The notes beneath the pieces are model-generated. The model was given only the letters and a program-made list of their open reading frames with translations, was not told the origin of the DNA and did no database searches. Shown piece after piece: positions 7,834-54,115 of a stretch of 64,000 bases of DNA; the first letter of the stretch is position 1, and each line of letters starts with the position of its first letter. Position numbers and translations under genes: made by a program. The stretch spans positions 35,781 through 99,780 of the forward strand of contig CAKOQQ010000001.1 of the NCBI GenBank assembly GCA_934101425.1. Direction: 5' to 3'. Origin of the DNA: an uncultured Bacilli bacterium. Its GTDB lineage: Bacteria; Bacillota_I; Bacilli_A; RF39; UBA660.

Positions 7834-7966
7834 TTGGTATCCTCCTTTCGCCTATATCAAGTATAGACTTGCTCCGTGTAAAAACCTGATTTATAGTTTG
7901 ATTTTTGTAACAACTCAACCTGGTGTATCAGCAACCTCACACATCCACGCACGCTACACATACAAA
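7834..7966 (-). promoter_or_regulatory. 5' leader of the S10 operon, about 130 nt, comparatively GC-rich and structured. Possibly an L4-type autoregulatory leader.
   Basis: An untranslated stretch between a consensus promoter and rpsJ. It has locally higher GC (ccacgcacgctacac, cctggtgtatcagc) than its AT-rich surroundings. Confidence 0.35.
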
Positions 7967-8003: not shown

Positions 8004-8031
8004 AGAAAAAAAATGAACTTTTATGTTCATT
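8004..8031 (-). terminator. Rho-independent terminator after pilin gene 8027..8950
   Basis: Hairpin AATGAAC-ataaaa-GTTCATT followed by a run of 9 T on the minus strand. It overlaps the stop codon. Confidence 0.6.
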
Positions 8032-8950
8032 TTAATTCTATTCTTTTTCCATGATTTTTAAACCATTTAATTACAACTGCATTTTTAACATCGTCGCCGC
8101 CAGTAATAGTTAATATTTTATATTTACTATTATACCAATTATTTTCTTCATAATAAGGGACATAAAACCCATTTTCTTTATCTATTGCATATAATATAAC
8201 ACCTTTATTAGCTTTTATGGTACTACCAAAAGGAAAATCTATTTTGTCAAAAGCTCCTGAAGTAAATCCGGCAGTAATACCAAAGGCACTAATTTGTAAA
8301 TCCATTGGTAATGGGGCATCAAACGGCAAATAAAGTGATGTAATACCTATATACTTTTTGCCATTAGAAGTAAATGTCAAGTTAGCATCTGATAAATCTA
8401 TTAGTTTATTAGCTTGTGAAGTAAAACCATCATTATAAGTAGAAACAGTACTAAATTTGTATCCTGTATCATCTAAAAGCCAAGTTGTATTAGTTAAATC
8501 TGTAACATCTTTATTTAATTCAATATAATTATCGGGTGTTTCTTCTTTTCCGTCTTCTTTCACTTCTTCAAATGTGCAATTCTTTTCACTTTCTTTATTA
8601 CTGTTTATAGTACCGTTAGCACTTATTTCTATGCAATAACCCGAAATGTACATTTTTCCATATGCATTACCTTCTTTATCATACTTTAAATATCCTTTGC
8701 TAGCCTTATCACCATCATAAGTAAATGGGCTATTCGATAAATCAATTTTATCTGTGTTTATATTATCCATTATATTTTGCAAATAATATGCTTTTGCTGC
8801 ACTCACTACATTTCTTGCGCTTGCTTCTGCCGCTGCTTTTTTAGAGTCTTCTATAATATTTAATACTGCTGGAGTTGCTATTAGTGCTATTACTGCTAGT
8901 ATCACTATTACGGCTAGTAACTCTATTAGTGTAAACCCTTTCTTTTTCAT
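8027..8950 (-). CDS. Type IV pilin-like protein with a class III signal peptide. One of three paralogs of about 300 aa.
   Basis: The N-terminus MKKKGFTLIELLAVIVILAVIALIATPAVLNIIEDSKK is a prepilin motif (G|FTLIE with Glu at +5). The first ~125 aa are near-identical to 38575..39474 and 44825..45733 (shared GYC(I/V)E...NGT motif), and the C-terminus is divergent. I trimmed the start to the internal ATG. Confidence 0.8.
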   Translation of the reverse strand: MKKKGFTLIELLAVIVILAVIALIATPAVLNIIEDSKKAAAEASARNVVSAAKAYYLQNIMDNINTDKIDLSNSPFTYDGDKASKGYLKYDKEGNAYGKMYISGYCIEISANGTINSNKESEKNCTFEEVKEDGKEETPDNYIELNKDVTDLTNTTWLLDDTGYKFSTVSTYNDGFTSQANKLIDLSDANLTFTSNGKKYIGITSLYLPFDAPLPMDLQISAFGITAGFTSGAFDKIDFPFGSTIKANKGVILYAIDKENGFYVPYYEENNWYNSKYKILTITGGDDVKNAVVIKWFKNHGKRIELK

Positions 8951-8971
8951 ATATCCTCCTCTATTTATAAG

Positions 8972-9007
8972 AAAACAAAAAAACAAAAAAACTAGGAATT
9001 TCCTAGG
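8972..9007 (-). terminator. Terminator-like or attenuator hairpin plus U-tract in the pilin leader (copy A)
   Basis: Minus-strand stem CTAGG-AAATT-CCTAG followed by TTTTTTTGTTTTTTTG. It lies between an upstream small ORF and the pilin RBS. Copy B at 45758..45792 has the same arrangement with a G.U-compensated stem. Confidence 0.45.
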
Positions 9008-9039
9008 TTTTATGTTTTATATATATGACTAATTACTAT

Positions 9040-9099
9040 TTAGTTAGTAAATAATATCGCCCAAGAAATATAAGAAGTATTATTTTTTGTATTAGCCAT
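9040..9099 (-). CDS. Conserved 19-aa upstream small ORF (MANTKNNTSYISWAILFTN), a possible leader peptide, preceding the pilin gene
   Basis: An ATG with an AAGGAAGT RBS 7 nt upstream. Its paralog at 45815..45880 encodes MANTNYNASHICVRVYLITIY. The first ~11 codons are conserved and the rest diverges. The six-frame track misses it because it is under 60 aa. Confidence 0.4.
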   Translation of the reverse strand: MANTKNNTSYISWAILFTN

Positions 9100-9122
9100 A
9101 CATTTACTTCCTTACTATATTA

Positions 9123-9151
9123 AGTATATATCTTTTCTATTAAGTTGTAAA
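9123..9151 (-). promoter_or_regulatory. Promoter TTTACA-17-TATACT driving the small ORF and the pilin gene (copy A)
   Basis: -35 TTTACA at plus 9146..9151, a 17-nt spacer, and -10 TATACT at plus 9123..9128. The identical architecture recurs at 45904..45932. Confidence 0.45.
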
Positions 9152-14104: not shown

Positions 14105-15205
14105 TTACACATTAAATCTGAAATGACAAATATCCCCATCTTGCATAATGTAATCTTTTCCTTCAAGTCTCATAAGACCATTTGCTCTTACATTAGCTTC
14201 ATTACCACATTTTTCTAAAGCTTCATAGCTCATTACTTCTGCTCTTATAAATCCTCTTTCAAAATCACTATGAATAATACCAGCACATTCTGGAGCTTTC
14301 ATACCTTTAGTAAATGTCCAAGCTTTTACTTCATCAGATCCTACAGTAAAATATGTTGCAAGTCCAAGTAAATCATAAGTAGCTTTAATTAATTTATCAA
14401 GGCCACTTTCTTTAATGCCTAAATCTTCTAAGAATGTTTTTTTATCTTCATCAGATAATTCACTTAATTCTGATTCTATTTTAGCACAAACAGTTATAAC
14501 TTTACTATTTTCTTCTTTGGCATAATTACGAACTTTTTCTACATAATCATTTGTATCTGTAAGTAAATCACTTTCTTCTACATTTGCCATATATATAATT
14601 GGTTTTAAAGTTAAGAAATTAAAAGCTTTTATCATAGCTAATTCTTCACTAGTAAAATCTAGACTTCTTATCGGTTTATTTTGTATTAGCGCTTCTCTTA
14701 TCTTATTTAAAAGCTCAACTTCTTTAATAGTTTCTTTATCTTTACTCATAGAAGCTTTTTTACCAATTTTAGAAAGTCTCGTTTCTACAACTTCTAAATC
14801 TGCAAGTATAAGCTCTATATTTATTATTTCTATATCACGTATAGGATCAACACTAGATTCAACGTGAATAATGTTATTATCATCAAAACATCTAACAACT
14901 TCTACTATAGCATCTACTTCTCTTATATGTGATAAAAATTTATTTCCAAGTCCTTCACCTTTACTAGCTCCTTTTACAAGTCCTGCTATATCTGTGAATT
15001 CAAATGACGTAGGGATAACTCTTTCTGGAACATATAAGTTTTCTAAAAATTCCATTCTTTTATCTGGCACAATAACCATTCCTACATTTGGATCAATAGT
15101 TGCAAATGGATAATTTGCAGCTAATATATTTTTCTTTGTAATTGCATTAAATAATGTGGACTTTCCTACATTTGGAAGTCCTACAATTCCTGCTGTTAAA
15201 GCCAT
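14105..15205 (-). CDS. ychF: Ribosome-binding ATPase YchF (Obg-family GTPase)
   Basis: G1 motif GIVGLPNVGKSTLFNAIT and a C-terminal TGS domain. 366 aa, the usual YchF length. Confidence 0.9.
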   Translation of the reverse strand: MALTAGIVGLPNVGKSTLFNAITKKNILAANYPFATIDPNVGMVIVPDKRMEFLENLYVPERVIPTSFEFTDIAGLVKGASKGEGLGNKFLSHIREVDAIVEVVRCFDDNNIIHVESSVDPIRDIEIINIELILADLEVVETRLSKIGKKASMSKDKETIKEVELLNKIREALIQNKPIRSLDFTSEELAMIKAFNFLTLKPIIYMANVEESDLLTDTNDYVEKVRNYAKEENSKVITVCAKIESELSELSDEDKKTFLEDLGIKESGLDKLIKATYDLLGLATYFTVGSDEVKAWTFTKGMKAPECAGIIHSDFERGFIRAEVMSYEALEKCGNEANVRANGLMRLEGKDYIMQDGDICHFRFNV

Positions 15206-15217
15206 TTTATCCCCCCC

Positions 15218-16738
15218 CTATAAAATTACATGTGTACTAGGTCCAAGTGGTAAATTAGCTACATACCAACCTAATATAATTACTAACCAAGTACAAGCCA
15301 TAATAACTATAACTGGCATCATTAATTTTAATGTACCAAATATTGTAATTTTCTTTTTTTCATTTGTATTATATTTTTCTAGGAATGCTAATAAAATTAT
15401 AAAATATACAAATAATGGTGTAATACATTTTCCTATAGAATCTGCAGCTTTAAATACCATTTGTGCATAATCGGGACTAGTACTAGCTTTCATAAATAAT
15501 GGTACCATTATAGGTGATATAAGTGTCCATTTTTCTGTAGTACCAGGTATAAATATACTCATTATTATAATTGCAAAGAACATAACAACTACTAATATAA
15601 ATGCTGGTACATCAAGTCTACTAACTAAATTTACAAGACCAGAACTTATTACTTCTGGTATATTAGTCCAATTTAATAAGCCTAATAATTGAGCTGTAAA
15701 GAATAATAATACAAATAAATAACCTAATTCTTCAAAATTAACTGATAATCCTACACTATAATCATTTGTATCCTTAAAGTTTTTAGAAACAAAACCATAT
15801 ATAAAACTACAAATCATAAGTGTAATTAAAAATATAAATAATATGCCATAATTAAATGGTGATTCACTACCTAATAGTTTTTCAATATAAGTGTTACCAG
15901 GCCCTAATAATAATCCAGATTTATAGGCTCCTGGAACAATTTCATATATAACAGCTACTAAAATAAGTAAAAAAGCAATTAAACTATAAAATAAACCTTT
16001 TCCAGATTCTTTCTTTTCTTCTGTTATTATTTCATTTTTACCTATCTTAGGGTATAAAAATTTCTTTATAGCACTAGTACCAACAATACATAAAAGTATT
16101 GTAGCAGTAATCATTATATATAAATTTGATAATGGATTAAATACATATGTAGAATCAACTGTTGCTGTTGCTGCTGCACTTGTACTTATTCCCATAGTTA
16201 TATCATCCATATTATAGAATAATCCTGCACCATAACCAAGTGTAATACCTAAGAATATTGTATATATACCCAGTAATGGTTTTTTACCAGCTTGTTCATA
16301 TATAACAGCCACTAAAGGAATAAGTATTATATAACTATATTCTCCTATAATAGATGATACAACACCTACTAATAATGTTAAAAAGATAAGAAAATCAATA
16401 TTTATTTTTTTTACTTTTTTAAACATTACTTGGAATAATCCACTAGCTTCTCCTATACCAATAGCCATAAGAGACATTATAAGTAAAAATAATGGTCTTA
16501 ATAATTCTAAATTAGTAATAGAATTCTTAATTATAGAAATAATACCATTAAAACTAAGCGCATTATTAACAGTTATAATAGGTGATGATTCTAAAGTATT
16601 ATTGTTTATAACAGACTTTGAAACACCAACTTCCATCATAGATAAGACTGTGCTTGCAATCATAGTTATAAGTATTAATACTATAATAGTTATAACAGGC
16701 CCTACTGATAGTCTCTCTTTAATTGATTTTTTAGCCAT
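15218..16738 (-). CDS. AbgT-family transporter (p-aminobenzoyl-glutamate transporter family)
   Basis: 506-aa polytopic protein. Its C-terminal region (SPIMVPLFM...AQMVFKAADS...WLVIILGWYVANLPLGPS) parallels the E. coli AbgT C-terminus. Confidence 0.6.
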   Translation of the reverse strand: MAKKSIKERLSVGPVITIIVLILITMIASTVLSMMEVGVSKSVINNNTLESSPIITVNNALSFNGIISIIKNSITNLELLRPLFLLIMSLMAIGIGEASGLFQVMFKKVKKINIDFLIFLTLLVGVVSSIIGEYSYIILIPLVAVIYEQAGKKPLLGIYTIFLGITLGYGAGLFYNMDDITMGISTSAAATATVDSTYVFNPLSNLYIMITATILLCIVGTSAIKKFLYPKIGKNEIITEEKKESGKGLFYSLIAFLLILVAVIYEIVPGAYKSGLLLGPGNTYIEKLLGSESPFNYGILFIFLITLMICSFIYGFVSKNFKDTNDYSVGLSVNFEELGYLFVLLFFTAQLLGLLNWTNIPEVISSGLVNLVSRLDVPAFILVVVMFFAIIIMSIFIPGTTEKWTLISPIMVPLFMKASTSPDYAQMVFKAADSIGKCITPLFVYFIILLAFLEKYNTNEKKKITIFGTLKLMMPVIVIMACTWLVIILGWYVANLPLGPSTHVIL

Positions 16739-38574: not shown

Positions 38575-39474
38575 CTATATTTTAGATAATACTGTTACTA
38601 ATCCTAAACTTGGTAAGTCAAGTGTCATATACCCATACTCACTATCAAACTCAGTTAATTCAATTAATGATACTTCTTCAGTATTAGGATTTATTAGCAT
38701 AACTAATAAATTATTCATTTCTTCTACTTTAGCGGCTTCACATGTAAATGTTAAAGTTATATTTTTATCATGAGTAAATGATAAAGTATTGCCTTCTTTT
38801 ATAGCTATATCATAAATAGGTGTTAAAGCATCATAATCTTCTACATTTACTTTTACTCCTGTAGTAGTTACTAAATTAGTTGTGTTTTTATTTAAAGCAT
38901 TAAGTAATTCTTCAAATGTAACTATTTCATCATCACTATTAAATCTTTCTACAGCCTTACTTACTAAAGTACTAGAATATCTTTTAGGATTAGATATATA
39001 TACTTTAATATTACTATTTCCAACTAAAATATTTTCTATGATAAAGCCTGCTCTACCATCTGTAAGTACTGGATTATCTTCTATTACTGGTGTTTCTATA
39101 GTGCATTCACTTTCATCTGTTTTAGTGCTTGTAATAGTTCCATTAGATGATACTTCAATGCAGTATCCTGATATATACATTTTACCACTTGCATTACCGT
39201 TAGTATCATAACTAAGTAATCCTTTTTTAGCTTGTTCTCCATCATATTTTAATGTGTTAGTGCTTAAATCAACATTAGAATTTGGCTTATTATCCATTTT
39301 ATTTTGCATATAATGTTTTTTTGCAGTGTCTACTATATTTCTTGCACTTGCTTCTGCTGCACTTTTCTTTGAGTCTTCTATAATATTTAATACTGCAGGG
39401 GTTGCAATTAGTGCTATTACTGCTAATATTACTATAACCGCTAATAGCTCTATTAATGTAAATCCTTTTTTCAT
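38575..39474 (-). CDS. Type IV pilin-like protein, paralog of 8027 and 44825
   Basis: MKKGFTLIELLAVIVILAVIALIATPAVLNIIEDSKK plus the shared ~125-aa N-terminal domain. I trimmed the start to the ATG that follows a GGAAG RBS. It appears co-transcribed with the upstream DUF368-like gene. Confidence 0.8.
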   Translation of the reverse strand: MKKGFTLIELLAVIVILAVIALIATPAVLNIIEDSKKSAAEASARNIVDTAKKHYMQNKMDNKPNSNVDLSTNTLKYDGEQAKKGLLSYDTNGNASGKMYISGYCIEVSSNGTITSTKTDESECTIETPVIEDNPVLTDGRAGFIIENILVGNSNIKVYISNPKRYSSTLVSKAVERFNSDDEIVTFEELLNALNKNTTNLVTTTGVKVNVEDYDALTPIYDIAIKEGNTLSFTHDKNITLTFTCEAAKVEEMNNLLVMLINPNTEEVSLIELTEFDSEYGYMTLDLPSLGLVTVLSKI

Positions 39475-39529
39475 ATAATCTTCCTTTTCACAAAAATAAT
39501 TATAACATACTATCAAATATTTTTAAATT

Positions 39530-44824: not shown

Positions 44825-45733
44825 CTATACCTTCATTGCAAACATCGTAGGGCCAAGGATTGGTAATGTTACAGTTGCATATCCATTTTTTTCGTCATAA
44901 TCACTTAAAGAAACAAAATATACTTTTCCAGTTTCAGAATCTACTTGTATAACTATTAAATCTTCTTTTGTTAGATTTTTAATACCTTCTGATTCTATAA
45001 TAAGTTCTATTTCTGAACTTGTTTCAAAAGATAATGTATTATTTTCTAAGATAGCGATATCATAAAAACTAGTAAATATTTCATAATTATTTAAATTAAT
45101 AACTTCGCCACTAGTATTTTTAATATTTTCTGTTGTATCAACAGACAAGTTAGTTAACATATCTTGTAAGTTCATTGTAGAATTTTCTTTATTGCGATTT
45201 TTTACTACTTCTCCAACAGTTTTGTTAAGATAAGCATCTGGCCTTGCTACATATGCGCCAATATTTGAGTTTCCTGATATAACTTTATTAACAGCAATAC
45301 CATTAAAAGCATCTGAAGCTACTGGATTATCAGTAGTTGTTGAATCATTTTCTATACTACATTCACTTTCTTTTACTTTGTCACTACTTACTGTTCCATC
45401 GCTTTTAATTTCTACACAGTAACCTGATACATACATTTTTCCATATGCATTACCATTCTTATCATAGCTTATAGATCCTTTAGTAGCTTGTTCACCATCA
45501 TATGCTAAAGTCTTTTTGGATAAGTCTATTGTTCCTATGCTTATGTTATCCATTAAATTTTGCATATAATATGATTTTGCTGCACTCACTATATTTCTTG
45601 CACTTGCTTCTGCTGCTGCTTTTTTAGAGTCTTCTATAATATTTAATACTGCAGGAGTTGCAATTAGTGCTATTACTGCTAGTATCACTATTACGGCTAA
45701 GAGCTCTATTAATGTAAATCCTTTCTTTTTCAT
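44825..45733 (-). CDS. Type IV pilin-like protein, paralog of 8027 and 38575
   Basis: MKKKGFTLIELLAVIVILAVIALIATPAVLNIIEDSKKAAAEASARNIVSAAK... Its N-terminal ~125 aa are near-identical to the other two. The C-terminal region is related to that of 38575. Confidence 0.8.
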   Translation of the reverse strand: MKKKGFTLIELLAVIVILAVIALIATPAVLNIIEDSKKAAAEASARNIVSAAKSYYMQNLMDNISIGTIDLSKKTLAYDGEQATKGSISYDKNGNAYGKMYVSGYCVEIKSDGTVSSDKVKESECSIENDSTTTDNPVASDAFNGIAVNKVISGNSNIGAYVARPDAYLNKTVGEVVKNRNKENSTMNLQDMLTNLSVDTTENIKNTSGEVINLNNYEIFTSFYDIAILENNTLSFETSSEIELIIESEGIKNLTKEDLIVIQVDSETGKVYFVSLSDYDEKNGYATVTLPILGPTMFAMKV

Positions 45734-45757
45734 ATTCCCTCCTTCTATTTATAAGAA

Positions 45758-45792
45758 AACAAAAAAAACACAAAAATCCAGGAATTTCCTAG
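45758..45792 (-). terminator. Attenuator-like hairpin plus U-tract in the pilin leader (copy B)
   Basis: Minus-strand CTAGG-AAATT-CCTGG (one G.U wobble relative to copy A) followed by ATTTTTGTGTTTTTTTTG. Confidence 0.4.
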
Positions 45793-45814
45793 TTTTTATG
45801 TTTTATATACATGA

Positions 45815-45880
45815 CTAATAGATGGTTATTAAATATACCCTCACGCAAATGTGAGAAGCATTATAATTTGTATTAGCCAT
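45815..45880 (-). CDS. Conserved 21-aa upstream small ORF (MANTNYNASHICVRVYLITIY), paralog of 9040..9099
   Basis: AAGGAAGTG RBS followed by an ATG. The N-terminus MANT.N.S.I is shared with copy A. It contains an internal inverted repeat CTCACatttgcGTGAG. Confidence 0.4.
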   Translation of the reverse strand: MANTNYNASHICVRVYLITIY

Positions 45881-45903
45881 ATACTTCACTTCCTTATTGT
45901 ATA

Positions 45904-45932
45904 AGTATAATACTTTTTATTTTGTTTGTAAA
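45904..45932 (-). promoter_or_regulatory. Promoter TTTACA-17-TATACT (copy B), identical in architecture to 9123..9151
   Basis: -35 at plus 45927..45932 and -10 at plus 45904..45909. Confidence 0.45.
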
Positions 45933-50393: not shown

Positions 50394-52190
50394 TTAACTT
50401 TTCTTTTCTAGCATTTTTATTTTAACTCTTTCAGATATTAATCTAGATGTTTCTTTGTCATAACCTAATCTAATTTTTAATTCATCTATAGTTTCTTTAT
50501 TAAGATTACCACTTATTTTTAATACTTCAAATATTTCATCTATTAAAGCATCATATTTATCATCTATAGTTTTTAATTCTCTATCTATTTCTTTAACTCT
50601 TTTTTTATGCATACCTTTTACTACGCTGGCACTATTTAAATCAAGTGCACTAGTCATTTCACTATATACATCATCTACATGAGTTCTTGGTATACCATCT
50701 ATTTTTCCTTCTTTTTCTTCTTCGATTAAAGTAATATTTCTTTTACCTACATAACCTCTTTTTTTATCTATTAAATATACTGAATGACCTTGTCTTTGTC
50801 CCAAATAACAATTACCATAATGCCATGAATCAATACCTGTTAATGAAGCTGTTCTAAGTACTGTTACTTTATCAAATTTAGTTTCACTATCTTGATGTAA
50901 ATGTCCTACAAATACATATACATTTTTAGCTTTATTATATTCATTAGGATATTGATATTTTACTGCTTCTGCAATAACTTTATCAGAAAGATTTTTGCCT
51001 TCTGGATTCTTACCATGACTAAATACTATTAGATTATCACCAAAAGAATAACAAGTAGTATATCTTAAATCTTGATAACCAAAACTAACTTCAACTTTAG
51101 GATCATCTGTTAAATTATATAAATCATATAAATTTGTAAACAAACTAAAGCTTGATTTTTCATCATGATTACCTGGATTACCTTTAAGTATTACTTTATC
51201 AAATTCTCGCTTTAAAGTTTCAATCATTCTAATATATCCAACTTTACCCCATAAATAAACTTCTTTAAATCTTGTATCATTATTTTGAGGAGTACCTGCA
51301 GTAGTTTTATCATCTACAGTATCACTATTAAAGAAATCATTACCAACACCTAGTATTAAGTTAGATGCTTTTATTCTTCTTTGATAATCTACTATTTCTT
51401 CTACTACTTTTTTTATTCTATACATAGCTTGTTTTGTAGAATAATCTTCACTATCTACTATAGATGCTAATTTACCTAAATGAAGTTCAAGACCAGGGGA
51501 TACCATTAATAAATCTTTATCTAAATCTAAAGGAGTCATTTCTTCTTTATTAAATAAATCAAAAGGAGTTAACTTTCTTTGTTTTAAAAAATCACTTAAA
51601 AATTTATCACATTCTTCTTTACTATAAAATAGAATTGGATTTTTTCTTCTTCCTATTACTACAGTAAATTTATCATTTAATACTTTATTTAATTGATCTG
51701 TGCCATCACTATTTTTAGTTTTAACAGGGGTATTCCAACCACCCATTACTACTTTTTTTACTTCAAAATTACTAGGATCAAATCCTAAATAATTAAGTAG
51801 AAATGCTTCATTATTTATTTTTTCAAGTACTTTTCTTCTTATTTCTTCAGGACTATCTGTTAAATCAACATTAAATATATCCTTATAATCACTTTTAGGA
51901 ATTGATAATGTTCTAGTTAGTGGTGTATCACTATCAATAACTTCTTCATGTATTTCTTCTTTTTTCTTTAATTTTGGTGTGTACTTACAATATTCAAAAA
52001 ATAATTGTGGATTTACTGATGTTGTAAAATTAATTGATTTAAATCTCGATGATAATAAACTAGGTGTTATCTCTTTTTTCTCTATATCAAAATATATTTT
52101 AGCTCCTTCACTCCAAGTAGTAATTATTCCTTCATTTTTTAATGTACCTATATAAAAGATAAGTGTTTCATTTAATTCTATTTTCCCCAT
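50394..52190 (-). CDS. Calcineurin-like metallophosphoesterase domain protein, with N- and C-terminal extensions
   Basis: The central region has the GNDFF (GDxxD-like), GNHD and GHLH motifs of the metallophosphatase fold. 598 aa. Confidence 0.5.
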   Translation of the reverse strand: MGKIELNETLIFYIGTLKNEGIITTWSEGAKIYFDIEKKEITPSLLSSRFKSINFTTSVNPQLFFEYCKYTPKLKKKEEIHEEVIDSDTPLTRTLSIPKSDYKDIFNVDLTDSPEEIRRKVLEKINNEAFLLNYLGFDPSNFEVKKVVMGGWNTPVKTKNSDGTDQLNKVLNDKFTVVIGRRKNPILFYSKEECDKFLSDFLKQRKLTPFDLFNKEEMTPLDLDKDLLMVSPGLELHLGKLASIVDSEDYSTKQAMYRIKKVVEEIVDYQRRIKASNLILGVGNDFFNSDTVDDKTTAGTPQNNDTRFKEVYLWGKVGYIRMIETLKREFDKVILKGNPGNHDEKSSFSLFTNLYDLYNLTDDPKVEVSFGYQDLRYTTCYSFGDNLIVFSHGKNPEGKNLSDKVIAEAVKYQYPNEYNKAKNVYVFVGHLHQDSETKFDKVTVLRTASLTGIDSWHYGNCYLGQRQGHSVYLIDKKRGYVGKRNITLIEEEKEGKIDGIPRTHVDDVYSEMTSALDLNSASVVKGMHKKRVKEIDRELKTIDDKYDALIDEIFEVLKISGNLNKETIDELKIRLGYDKETSRLISERVKIKMLEKKS

Positions 52191-52206
52191 TTTTCCTCCT
52201 AAAAAA

Positions 52207-52232
52207 AAGACTACAAAAAAGTAGTCTTATAA
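52207..52232. terminator. Bidirectional terminator hairpin AAGACTAC-aaaaaa-GTAGTCTT
   Basis: Perfect 8-bp stem flanked by A and T runs, downstream of 50394..52190. Confidence 0.5.
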
Positions 52233-52483
52233 ACTAATAACTAAATCGCAATGTAATCTTCTTATTCCCATATCAATCACTCGCTTACTATATTAATAAT
52301 AACACTATATATTATTTTATGCAATAAAAAAAGAGATATTTCTCTTTTTATGTGTTTTGTACTAGTTAGTTATAAAAGCCAACCCCTTTATAATACAAAA
52401 CACATGAGTACTCTAATTTAAGTATAATATATTTATATATTTTTGCAATACTAAATTAAAAAACTTTACATGTGTTTTGTAAA

Positions 52484-52865: not shown

Positions 52866-53957
52866 TTATATCATACTTTTTATTAAATCTACTTTATTTA
52901 ATTTTTCATAACTTAAATTATTTTTACCAAAATGTCCAAAACAAGTAGTTTTAGTATAATCTAAATGTTTTAGATCTAACTCACTAATTATATTTTTAAC
53001 ACTAAAATCAAATACTTTATTTATTATACCTAGTATTTTTTCTTCAGATATTTTATTTGTATTAAATGTATTTATACTTATAGATATAGGATTTTTAACA
53101 CCTATTAAGTATGATACTTGTATTTCTATTTTATCAGTTATACCAGCAGCTACTACATTTTTAGCTACATATCTTGCATAATAAGCAGCACTTCTATCTA
53201 CTTTTGATGGATCTTTTCCTGAAAAGGCTCCACCACCAACTTTAGCAAAAGAATGATAACTATCTACTACTATTTTTCTACCAGTTAATCCTGCATCACC
53301 ACTAAATCCCCCTATATTAAATCTACCTGTTGGATTAGTTATAAATTCATCTACAGATACATTATACTTATTACATATTTCTTTTGCTAATTTAATAATA
53401 ATTTTATCAGTTTCTTCTCTTTCTAACTCAGTATTTTGATAACAAATTGTAAAATTAGTTATTTTAATTAACTTATCATTATCATATAAACCAGTTATTT
53501 CAGCTTTACCATCAGGTAAAAATCTATTATCTTCTTTAACTAAATTAGCATATGCTTCACTAAATAATTGTAGTATTACCATAGAAACTGGTAAATAATA
53601 TTCGGTATCATTAGTAGCATAGCCAAACATCATACCATTATCACCAGCACCATTTACTTCTTCATTAGTACCAAGAGCTATATCAGTACTTTGAACTCCT
53701 AAATTATTTATTATTTCATAATTAGTATCATATCCAACAGAATCAAGTACAGCCTTAACTATTTTTTCTACGTTGATACTTGCTTTTGTTGTGACTTCTC
53801 CAGTTACAAATATTTTACCTTTACCACCACATACTTCTATACCACATCTTGAATTTTCATCAGACTTTAAACACACCTCTAAAATGGCATCACTTATTTG
53901 ATCACATACTTTATCTGGGTGTCCCCTAAATACTATTTCATTACTATATAACTTCAT
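52866..53957 (-). CDS. metK: S-adenosylmethionine synthase
   Basis: GHPDKVCDQISDA near the N-terminus and GGGAFSGKDPSKVDRSAAYYARYVAKNVVAAG near the C-terminus, both matching conserved MetK blocks. Confidence 0.9.
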   Translation of the reverse strand: MKLYSNEIVFRGHPDKVCDQISDAILEVCLKSDENSRCGIEVCGGKGKIFVTGEVTTKASINVEKIVKAVLDSVGYDTNYEIINNLGVQSTDIALGTNEEVNGAGDNGMMFGYATNDTEYYLPVSMVILQLFSEAYANLVKEDNRFLPDGKAEITGLYDNDKLIKITNFTICYQNTELEREETDKIIIKLAKEICNKYNVSVDEFITNPTGRFNIGGFSGDAGLTGRKIVVDSYHSFAKVGGGAFSGKDPSKVDRSAAYYARYVAKNVVAAGITDKIEIQVSYLIGVKNPISISINTFNTNKISEEKILGIINKVFDFSVKNIISELDLKHLDYTKTTCFGHFGKNNLSYEKLNKVDLIKSMI

Positions 53958-53989: not shown

Positions 53990-54115
53990 ATAAAGAAAAA
54001 ACACACTCAAAGATAACCATGAGTGTGTTATCTTATAGACTCTAGCATTACCACCTAACTAAATAGGTTGGTGTGATTTCATAGGGCTAGTCCCTCCATC
54101 ACTCTTTATAAGATG
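53990..54115 (-). ncRNA. SAM-I (S-box) riboswitch with an intrinsic terminator, in the metK leader
   Basis: Minus strand: CUUAUAAAGAGUGAUGGAGGGACUAGCCCUAUGAAAUCACACCAACC...GGUGGUAAUGCUAGAG...UAUAAGAUAAC, with P1 CUUAUA/UAUAAG and the GGAGGGAC-GCCC-AUGAA core. It is followed by the hairpin AACACACUCA...UGAGUGUGUU plus UUUUUU. Confidence 0.85.

Follow-up and report, generated by a model that had tools for sequence, protein, structure and literature searches.

In transcription attenuation of the Escherichia coli pyrBI type, a leader open reading frame (ORF) runs through a terminator, and a ribosome coupled to RNA polymerase suppresses termination. Leaders of another kind are the 5' mRNA stabilisers of Bacillus, such as the STAB-SD of cryIIIA and the leader hairpin of aprE. 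In Streptococcus gallolyticus, the terminator of the sortase-dependent pilus operon pil1 is preceded by a leader ORF with a slippery repeat, (GCAGA)n (Danne et al. 2014, PMC3894217). If this ORF is short, it stops 39 bp before the terminator and expression is low; the frameshifted long ORF ends in or after the hairpin, so that the ribosome prevents hairpin formation and expression is high (PMC3894217). This model is confirmed by delta-term, ATG* and 3-STOP mutants (PMC3894217). In Clostridioides difficile, a cyclic di-GMP (c-di-GMP) riboswitch is located upstream of the type IV pilin gene pilA1 (PMC6366702, PMC6200980). Here, we analysed a stretch of 64,000 nucleotides from an uncultured Bacilli bacterium (contig CAKOQQ010000001.1, positions 35,781 to 99,780; referred to as the window), which contains two copies of a leader upstream of genes for type IV pilin-like proteins. 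We suggest that this leader attenuates transcription, with read-through into the pilin gene depending on how far translation of the leader ORF extends, and we assign a rough probability of 45% to this reading.

Two leader copies in the window and their relatives

Copy A (9151..8951) and copy B (45932..45734) are both encoded on the minus strand and show an identical order of elements: TTTACA-17-TATACT, the Shine-Dalgarno (SD)-like sequence AAGGAAGT, a small ORF starting with ATG, a hairpin followed by a U-tract, and the ribosome-binding site (RBS) of the pilin gene. An earlier reading of the window (the original prediction) had claimed four such elements in the same order at both sites, and all of them were found on the minus strand. 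The positions of promoters, small ORFs and pilin genes are as follows.

9151..9146 and 9128..9123, minus strand: copy A promoter, -35 TTTACA and -10 TATACT with a 17-nt spacer, 10/12 match
9113..9106, minus strand: copy A, SD-like sequence AAGGAAGT of the small ORF
9099..9040, minus strand: copy A small ORF, 19 codons plus TAA (stop at 9042..9040), MANTKNNTSYISWAILFTN
8960..8955 and 8027..8950, minus strand: copy A, pilin SD AGGAGG and pilin gene (ATG at 8950, 307 aa, PF07963)
45932..45927 and 45909..45904, minus strand: copy B promoter, TTTACA and TATACT with a 17-nt spacer (consensus scan)
45895..45888, minus strand: copy B, SD-like sequence AAGGAAGT of the small ORF
45880..45815, minus strand: copy B small ORF, 21 codons plus TAG, MANTNYNASHICVRVYLITIY
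44825..45733, minus strand: copy B pilin gene (ATG at 45733), 302 aa

The copy A promoter is the top-scoring promoter-like site of its region in a consensus scan. Over an aligned 300 nt, from the upstream flank through the leader to ~50 nt into the pilin gene, copies A and B share 86% mean column identity. A 40-nt leader core gave exactly two matches in the window, namely the two copies, with 0 expected by chance. Most likely, both copies act in cis as 5' leaders of ~150 nt on the mRNA of their pilin, with transcription from TTTACA-17-TATACT.

Homologues were collected from the close pilin relatives in a protein collection and their contigs, and by one metagenome scan with the leader core. This search revealed 15 further leaders on other contigs from several gut metagenomes, resulting in 17 homologous leaders including the window copies (winA and winB). 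The homologues were named L082, L083, L084 and L085 (partial), L087b, L088, L089, and L094 to L103. All of them are located immediately 5' of a type IV pilin-like gene start (ATGAAAAAGAAAGGATTTAC...), in many genomic contexts; the pilin of L095 is degenerate. The position of the promoter is conserved in the 17 homologues. L099 and L087b have unrelated upstream sequences, yet a TTGACA/TTTACA-17-TATAAT promoter is found at an unchanged distance from the leader, which is good comparative evidence for a transcription start at this position.

About half of the close pilin relatives do not have the leader (L090, L091, L092, and the first pilin of L087, termed L087a), and a similar promoter is located directly before TATAGAATAGGAGG-ATG in these cases. 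L086 (1800..2001) represents a deletion variant. It has retained the promoter and P1-like GACUAAU/AUUGGUC arms (see below for P1) and has lost both the ATG of the small ORF (ATAGACTAAT) and the whole terminator hairpin. Its pilin is called as 124 aa plus an overlapping ORF of 228 aa and may be frameshifted.

We also scanned the genomes of GTDB species with a profile of the pilin N-terminus. At the 80 pilin loci identified, mostly in metagenome-assembled genomes of "uncultured Bacilli" and with at most 57% identity, no leader was detected by blastn or with an nhmmer leader profile. Since the GTDB species genomes do not contain the element, the leader is confined to a narrow clade, which leaves no distant homologues for a covariation analysis. 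A scan of viral contigs with the leader core gave 0 matches. The resemblance of the small-ORF SD (SD1) and ATG to a pilin gene start raised the idea that the leader is a decayed duplicate of the pilin 5' end, but the local alignment scores are no better than those of shuffles.

A predicted terminator upstream of the pilin gene

The hairpin and U-tract are referred to as T in the following. In the window, they are composed of these parts.

8972..9018, minus strand: copy A terminator-like element (terminator scan), hairpin of -11.2 kcal/mol
9018..9007, 9006..9002 and 8996..8992, minus strand: parts of the copy A element, lower stem AAAACAUAAAAC, top CUAGG and CCUAG
45755..45804, minus strand: copy B terminator-like element, AAAACAUAAAAA-CUAGG-loop-CCUGG-A-UUUUUGUGUUUU, followed by UUUUGUUUUC

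All 16 complete copies contain such a hairpin and U-tract, with -10 to -18.5 kcal/mol for the hairpin. The terminator scan recovered both hairpins of the window, with 0.3-0.5 expected in shuffles; that of copy B has -15.9 kcal/mol and a pair probability of 0.97. T has the sequence features of an intrinsic terminator, a G+C-containing hairpin directly followed by a U-tract, and matches the rule of the gene-end terminators of this genome, for example the one right after the gene for pilin C (see below). The original prediction had described a short CTAGG/CCTAG stem-loop and its wobble variant in copy B. Both exist: copy A reads CTAGG-AAATT-CCTAG (9006..8992) followed by T7-G-T7-G-T4, and copy B has CTAGG/CCTGG (45792..45778) with a single U.G wobble. 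The full hairpin, however, is a stem of 17-18 bp, because the A-rich 5' flank pairs with the first U-tract, while a second U-tract lies behind it. In copy A, the first U-tract thus forms the 3' arm of the lower stem, and the distal one is located at 8980..8972.

Between the U-tract and the pilin start, no sigma-70-like promoter with at least 9/12 matches was found in either copy, in agreement with the previous claim that there is no separate promoter. Therefore, the pilin would most simply be expressed by read-through of T. Between hairpin and pilin, a -10-like TATAAA is conserved, 16-17 nt before every pilin ATG and even in the terminator-less L086, but it has no usable -35.

This motif has to be considered together with a different explanation, according to which the element is the gene of a trans-acting small RNA (sRNA) of ~150 nt, directed for example against other pilin mRNAs, and the pilin is expressed from leak-through or from a weak start at TATAAA. 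A promoter, two hairpins and a terminator are indeed the standard anatomy of an sRNA, and the conservation of TATAAA would fit. But a transcript starting there would have almost no 5' UTR (untranslated region), and a free-standing copy of the leader away from a pilin start was never found (17/17 at pilins; nhmmer). Furthermore, the helix P0 described below requires sequence 3' of the terminator, indicating that selection acts on the read-through transcript. In the leaderless L091 and L092, a promoter of this kind immediately precedes the pilin SD, which identifies the promoter of the leader as that of the pilin itself. We consider an sRNA gene improbable.

The small ORF differs in length and reach

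The original prediction had noted that the first ~11 codons of the small ORF are conserved and had offered, as one option, a small peptide gene co-duplicated with its pilin. Two observations favor a functional peptide of 19-21 aa: the ATG and the SD-like sequence 9-10 nt upstream are kept in 17/17 full leaders, and no copy has a stop within the first 9 codons. Otherwise, neither purifying selection nor a constant length and frame was detected among the leader homologues. The ORFs encode 9, 12, 19, 21, 23, 29, 31, 32, 33 or 36 aa, and three reading frames are used 3' of a G-rich spot. The C-termini in copies A and B are non-homologous, with a 5-nt indel between them and stops at different places. 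Even the orthologues at locus A have premature stops at different codons and encode 12 aa (L089, TGG to TAG), 19 aa (window and L102, CAA to TAA) or 29 aa (L094). Nearly every change in codons 2-12 is nonsynonymous (GCT/ACT, ACA/AAA/ATA, AAA/AAT, AAT/TAT, ACT/GCT, TCT/TTC, TAT/CAC). Copy A additionally contains a competing upstream ATG that is nearer to the SD and better spaced (AAATGTATGG, encoding M-Y-G-stop), and the peptides have no hydrophobic or signal-like character. Since the small ORF is unconstrained apart from its SD and ATG, a functional peptide is very unlikely, and we regard it as the least probable of all explanations. That the first 11 codons are conserved is more readily attributed to the RNA/nucleotide level, namely to helix arms: the start of the ORF is the 5' arm of helix P1, and its SD is the 5' arm of helix P0. 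Hence, this conserved small ORF should not be annotated as a peptide gene.

The distance between the end of the ORF and T also differs. The stops range from 61 nt 5' of the UAGG of the hairpin to within its 3' arm. In 7/17 leaders, the ORF ends within T (lower stem, loop or 3' arm), while the others stop 26-61 nt 5' of the UAGG. Both window copies belong to the latter group. In copy A, the stop lies 37 nt 5' of the UAGG (CUAGG arm) and 24 nt 5' of the foot of the long stem; in copy B, it is located within the P1 3' arm, 26 nt 5' of the UAGG. The only variant without the ATG (L086) is also the one without the terminator.

At the same spot in 7/17 leader homologues, we found poly-G tracts (G6-G10), namely in L082, L083, L099, L100, L101, L098 and L087. 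L082 and L083 come from two samples and are otherwise near-identical: the tract of L082 (at 1879) is G10 and its ORF has 21 aa, whereas that of L083 (at 1881) is G8 and its ORF of 33 aa ends in the loop of T. With the exception of L087b, each G-tract leader has one tract-length class, out of three, in which the ORF extends into T. Such runs are rare. The window (26.6% G+C) contains one G/C run of at least 6, and nine occur in 99 kb of related loci, 6/9 of them at the leader spot. Both window copies have GGG only and no G-tract and are in the short-ORF configuration.

Conserved RNA fold of the leader

The structure was tested on alignments of 16 sequences (A4, A5) with RNAalifold and explicit pair counts. 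The helix arms in the window copies are as follows.

9109..9115, minus strand: copy A, P0 5' arm GUAAGGA, overlapping AAGGAAGT (RNAalifold, pair counts)
9091..9103, minus strand: copy A, P1 5' arm AUGUAUGGCUAAU, containing the AUG of the small ORF (RNAalifold, pair counts), mean pair probability 0.94
9021..9033, minus strand: copy A, P1 3' arm AUUAGUCAUAUAU (folds, RNAalifold, pair counts)
8967..8973, minus strand: copy A, P0 3' arm UUCUUAU, pyrimidines immediately before the pilin SD (RNAalifold, pair counts)
45872..45884, minus strand: copy B, P1 5' arm GUAUAUGGCUAAU (RNAalifold, pair counts), pair probability 0.99
45807..45819, minus strand: copy B, P1 3' arm AUUAGUCAUGUAU (folds, RNAalifold, pair counts)
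45757..45751 and 45744..45738, minus strand: copy B, P0 3' arm UUCUUAU and pilin SD AAGGAGG

In P1, the start of the small ORF, AUGGCUAAU (ORF-start block UAUGGCUAAU), pairs with the downstream AUUAGUCAU (conserved block AUUAGUCAUA). This helix of 13 bp is paired in 100% of the cells in the 16 sequences; five positions vary, and only purine-purine opposite U. P0 connects GUAAGGA, which overlaps the small-ORF SD and lies about 2-8 nt from the predicted 5' end of the RNA, with UUCUUAU just before the pilin SD. Here, 98% of the cells are paired, and A-U to G-C compensatory changes occurred in L088 and twice in L087b, that is, three in a 7-bp helix. T (17-18 bp) consists of an A-rich/U-rich lower stem, which shows an A-U to U-A compensatory change (6 vs 7 sequences), and the CUAGG/CCUAG top. 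P2 is a variable hairpin, CUUCUCAC-AUUU-GUGAGGG and variants thereof. Taken together, the leader is modeled as a closed three-way junction of P0, a P1-P2 rod and the T hairpin.

Overall, 97.7% of the cells pair in the proposed structure, compared to 38-59% with slid partners. Double changes are present at three pairs, a count that was reached in 11/500 shuffles. A check for covariation among relatives, as proposed beforehand, thus found a few compensatory changes in P0 and T. The fold z-scores of the two window copies are -2.8 and -4.4, and the minimum-energy folds of single sequences contain P0, P1, P2 and T in nearly every homologue and leave the pilin SD unpaired. Pairings that overlap the small ORF were found (P0 and P1). 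An alternative pairing that competes with the terminator is restricted to one lineage: in folds of transcripts cut before the T 3' arm, the candidate antiterminator AUUUCUUGGG:CCUAGGAAAU appears only in the locus-A lineage (winA, L094, L102) and is absent from L089 and all other copies. No Rfam family reaches its gathering threshold at either leader (Rfam 15, including c-di-GMP-I/II and other riboswitches), and permissive E-value scans of both leaders gave noise only (best 24 bits vs a gathering score of 134). The three-way-junction fold with P0 and P1 is new. If the leader functions in the proposed way, it would also represent an unclassified leader RNA, absent from Rfam and narrowly distributed, whose defined fold is open to direct testing.

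These data also allow for an RNA-only reading, in which the leader works as a module of the 5' UTR and the small ORF has no role. Such a module could protect the 5' end from decay, by means of its paired terminus and the SD-like element close to it as in the Bacillus stabilisers, tune pilin translation (with the pyrimidine stretch pairing with either SD1 or the pilin SD), or control the terminator through a protein or ligand. P0 pairs the extreme 5' end and has accumulated three compensatory changes, the fully paired P1 buries the AUG, and the pilin SD stays accessible in almost all minimum-energy folds. The length, frame and peptide of the ORF are unconstrained, and the G-rich tract is the P2 3' arm, which could derive from GUGAGGGG via one transition. 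On the other hand, a stabiliser needs no strong hairpin with a U-tract, which would cost most of the transcripts. Ligand-binding aptamers are not conserved in the manner observed here, where the helices and not the loops or junctions are the most conserved parts and the middle of the element is the most variable one; neither an Rfam match nor a conserved antiterminator was obtained. Moreover, the maintenance of SD and ATG at a spacing of 9-10 nt in 17/17 full copies is not accounted for, and L087b has even improved its SD to AGGAG with compensating changes in the other arm. We regard an RNA-only function as quite possible, but less likely than attenuation by leader-ORF translation.

The leaders also show signs of mosaic recombination. 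The 5' half of the leader of L089, a locus-A orthologue, is 100% identical to copy A, while the pilin (N-terminal domain) shares only 80%. Likewise, winB and L101 have ~100% identical flanks, but only 61% identity in the middle region of the leader. At the same chromosomal locus, different strains can thus carry different pilin alleles behind an identical leader 5' half, which resembles a pilin cassette exchange. Such mosaicism would be expected if the leader were a functionless hitch-hiker that is homogenised by duplication or gene conversion of pilin cassettes and serves as a conserved 5' homology arm, its features being tolerated; the half of the close pilin relatives that manages without a leader (L087a, L090, L091, L092) fits this as well. 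However, compensatory changes in P0 and T and the lack of any broken pair in P1 are not expected for a passive sequence, and an unregulated strong terminator before a gene would be costly. The leader also has no detectable similarity to the 5' coding region of the pilin. Similarity amounts to 0.8-1.0 in T, in the arms of P1 and in the stretch preceding the pilin SD, compared to 0.5-0.8 at the fourfold-degenerate sites of the adjacent pilin codons; the middle region does not exceed them in this way. We use this comparison as weak support only, since it is confounded by the mosaic recombination. All in all, we see only a small chance for a functionless leader.

Proposed mechanism

Based on the described elements, we infer the following sequence of events. 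T would act as an intrinsic terminator, so that pilin transcription would need read-through. The likeliest input would be co-transcriptional translation of the leader ORF. A ribosome that stops well before T, as predicted for both window copies (37 and 26 nt), would allow T to form and result in basal read-through only. If the ORF runs into T, the ribosome would melt T and pilin transcription would rise. Among relatives, nonsense point mutations and indels could reset the reach of the ORF, as could slippage of the G6-G10 tracts where these are present. This would create a heritable, stochastic switch as in S. gallolyticus pil1. For the window copies, our analysis predicts low, basal pilin expression, because both are without a G-tract and in the short-ORF state.

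A number of points weigh against this reading. Since the two window copies have no G-tract and both of their ORFs stop before T, the switch would be either fixed low in this genome or driven otherwise. In L087b, the UGA lies 5' of the G8 tract (L087 3208), so that the tract is outside the ORF and its length cannot set the frame. The proportion of long ORFs (7/17) equals the random-frame expectation of about one third. P0 and P1 bury the SD and AUG of the small ORF, which would restrict translation to a short co-transcriptional window before the 3' arms are made. The SD AAGGAAG is weak, and its conservation could come from pairing alone. The G8/G10 difference between L082 and L083 could be an assembly error, and the G-rich tract doubles as the P2 3' arm, pairing with CUUCUC/CUUUCC. 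The covariation support for the fold is real but modest, because the sequences are closely related and exchange segments. Finally, the mosaic recombination means that part of the leader conservation reflects concerted evolution.

A more far-reaching version would be that, in uncultured low-GC gut Bacilli, each member of a recombining family of type IV pilin-like paralogs is gated by its own heritable on/off switch, with the reach of the leader ORF into the terminator being reset by poly-G slippage or point mutation, inside a three-way junction whose P0 and P1 restrict leader translation co-transcriptionally. In this complete form, we consider it doubtful and clearly less probable than attenuation as such. 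If true, stochastic pilin choice would provide antigenic or adhesive variation in an uncultured commensal, and the pil1 mechanism would extend from sortase pili to type IV pilins.

Pilin genes, the third paralog and other elements of the window

Pilins A and B both contain the prepilin N-methylation motif PF07963 (N_methyl) with an E-value of about 5e-8 (1e-6 for paralog C). The PF07963 matches and the alignment show the prepilin motif G|FTLIE followed by a hydrophobic helix, as in type IV pilin-like proteins. An N-terminal domain of ~125 aa is common to pilins A and B, and their C-terminal domains have diverged. A protein identical to pilin A is encoded on a 189-kb contig of a Hadza gut metagenome, where its gene lies between an NlpC/P60 gene, a gene for a lipoprotein-like product and the S10 ribosomal operon. 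In this clade, pilin paralogs are inserted time and again beside translation genes, namely the S10 operon (window 8027..8950), L32 (L082), IF2 (L091) and L9/DnaB (L092), and no pilus assembly genes adjoin these paralogs. An S10-Clostridia ribosomal leader (Rfam; 7848..7955, minus strand) is located just downstream of the pilin A gene and barely passes with 35.7 bits vs a gathering score of 35.1.

The third paralog, pilin C (38575..39474, minus strand), has no leader, as noted in the original prediction. The gene upstream belongs to PF04018 (formerly DUF368). The suggested co-transcription with this gene is not required, because paralog C has its own extended -10 promoter-like site (TTTAAA-17-TATAAT plus a TG extension, 39527..39499), ~20 nt before its SD. 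A 9-bp terminator directly follows its stop codon. In view of its own promoter and the lack of a leader, paralog C could be a constitutively expressed pilin, judging from its sequence.

An analogous leader layout is present at 52190..52300 (minus strand), before a gene for a protein of 598 aa without a Pfam match (50394..52190). It consists of a TG-extended -10, AAUAUAGUAAGCGAG, an ORF of 14 aa (MGIRRLHCDLVISL) whose UAA abuts the hairpin, an 8-bp hairpin (AAGACUAC/GUAGUCUU), U8, and AGGAGG-ATG. Its fold z-score is -2.7 and it has no Rfam match. Homology to the pilin leaders was rejected, since the alignment shows analogy only. Small ORFs that stop at the base of a terminator may be a recurring device in this genome. 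Rfam furthermore places a SAM riboswitch at 54030..54114 (minus strand), upstream of the gene 52866..53957. The window contains a single G/C run of at least 6, a G8 at 15211..15218 (minus strand), which overlaps the TAG stop of a gene for an AbgT-family transporter (15218..16738) and forms the SD region of the gene for the GTPase YchF (14105..15205). It is a possible contingency tract affecting the spacing between SD and ATG.

Comparison with known systems

The proposal of a leader-peptide attenuator layout has held up insofar as the order of elements recurs at 17 loci and has a precedent in pil1 (PMC3894217). The classical amino-acid type does not apply. The pilin leaders share a small leader ORF before an intrinsic terminator with the trp, his, leu and Phe_leader (RF01859) attenuators. 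But an attenuator of the trp/his/leu type was rejected, because the peptides share no regulatory codon run and there is no conserved 2:3 antiterminator, with an alternative pairing only at locus A. The Rfam match to Phe_leader is noise on the wrong strand (16.8 bits vs a gathering score of 55).

As in pyrBI, the leader ORF of the long-ORF homologues enters the terminator hairpin, with U-rich tracts around. In contrast to pyrBI, there is no sign of nucleotide-sensing pauses, the ORF end is variable, and the downstream gene encodes a pilin instead of a biosynthetic operon. The pilA1 riboswitch is likewise a terminator-based leader before a type IV pilin gene of a Firmicute, but the pilin leaders match neither c-di-GMP-I/II nor any other riboswitch model, and their helices are conserved instead of their junctions. 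With the Bacillus stabilisers, they have in common an SD-like sequence within a few nt of the 5' end, a paired 5' terminus and a downstream gene that is expected to be highly expressed. However, those stabilisers have no intrinsic terminator and need no start codon.

The differences to pil1 concern the target, a type IV pilin-like paralog versus a sortase-dependent pilus, and the repeat, a G homopolymer, absent from both window copies, versus (GCAGA)n. In addition, the long-range helices P0 and P1 bury the SD and AUG of the leader ORF here, while none are described for pil1. New in comparison to the described systems are the link to type IV pilin-like paralogs in a clade of uncultured gut Bacilli, the homopolymer as slippery repeat, and the P0/P1 three-way junction. 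Nevertheless, pil1 is the known mechanism that fits the leaders studied here best. The order of promoter, leader ORF with RBS and ATG, stem-loop with T-run, and RBS of the pilus gene is the same, with a leader ORF in 17/17 full homologues. Short ORFs stop tens of nt before the hairpin in both systems (39 bp in pil1, 26-61 nt here), and ORFs in the long frame end inside it (7/17 here). In pil1, a slippery repeat inside the ORF changes the frame; the G6-G10 tracts, present in 7/17 leaders here but in neither window copy and outside the ORF in L087b, may do so as well. Both systems are directed at a surface pilus subunit of a gut Firmicute. Should the proposed function be correct, gut Firmicutes would use the leader-ORF/terminator phase switch recurrently for genes of surface filaments, here attached to individual type IV pilin-like paralogs of an uncultured lineage, and it would not be a peculiarity of one Streptococcus pilus operon.

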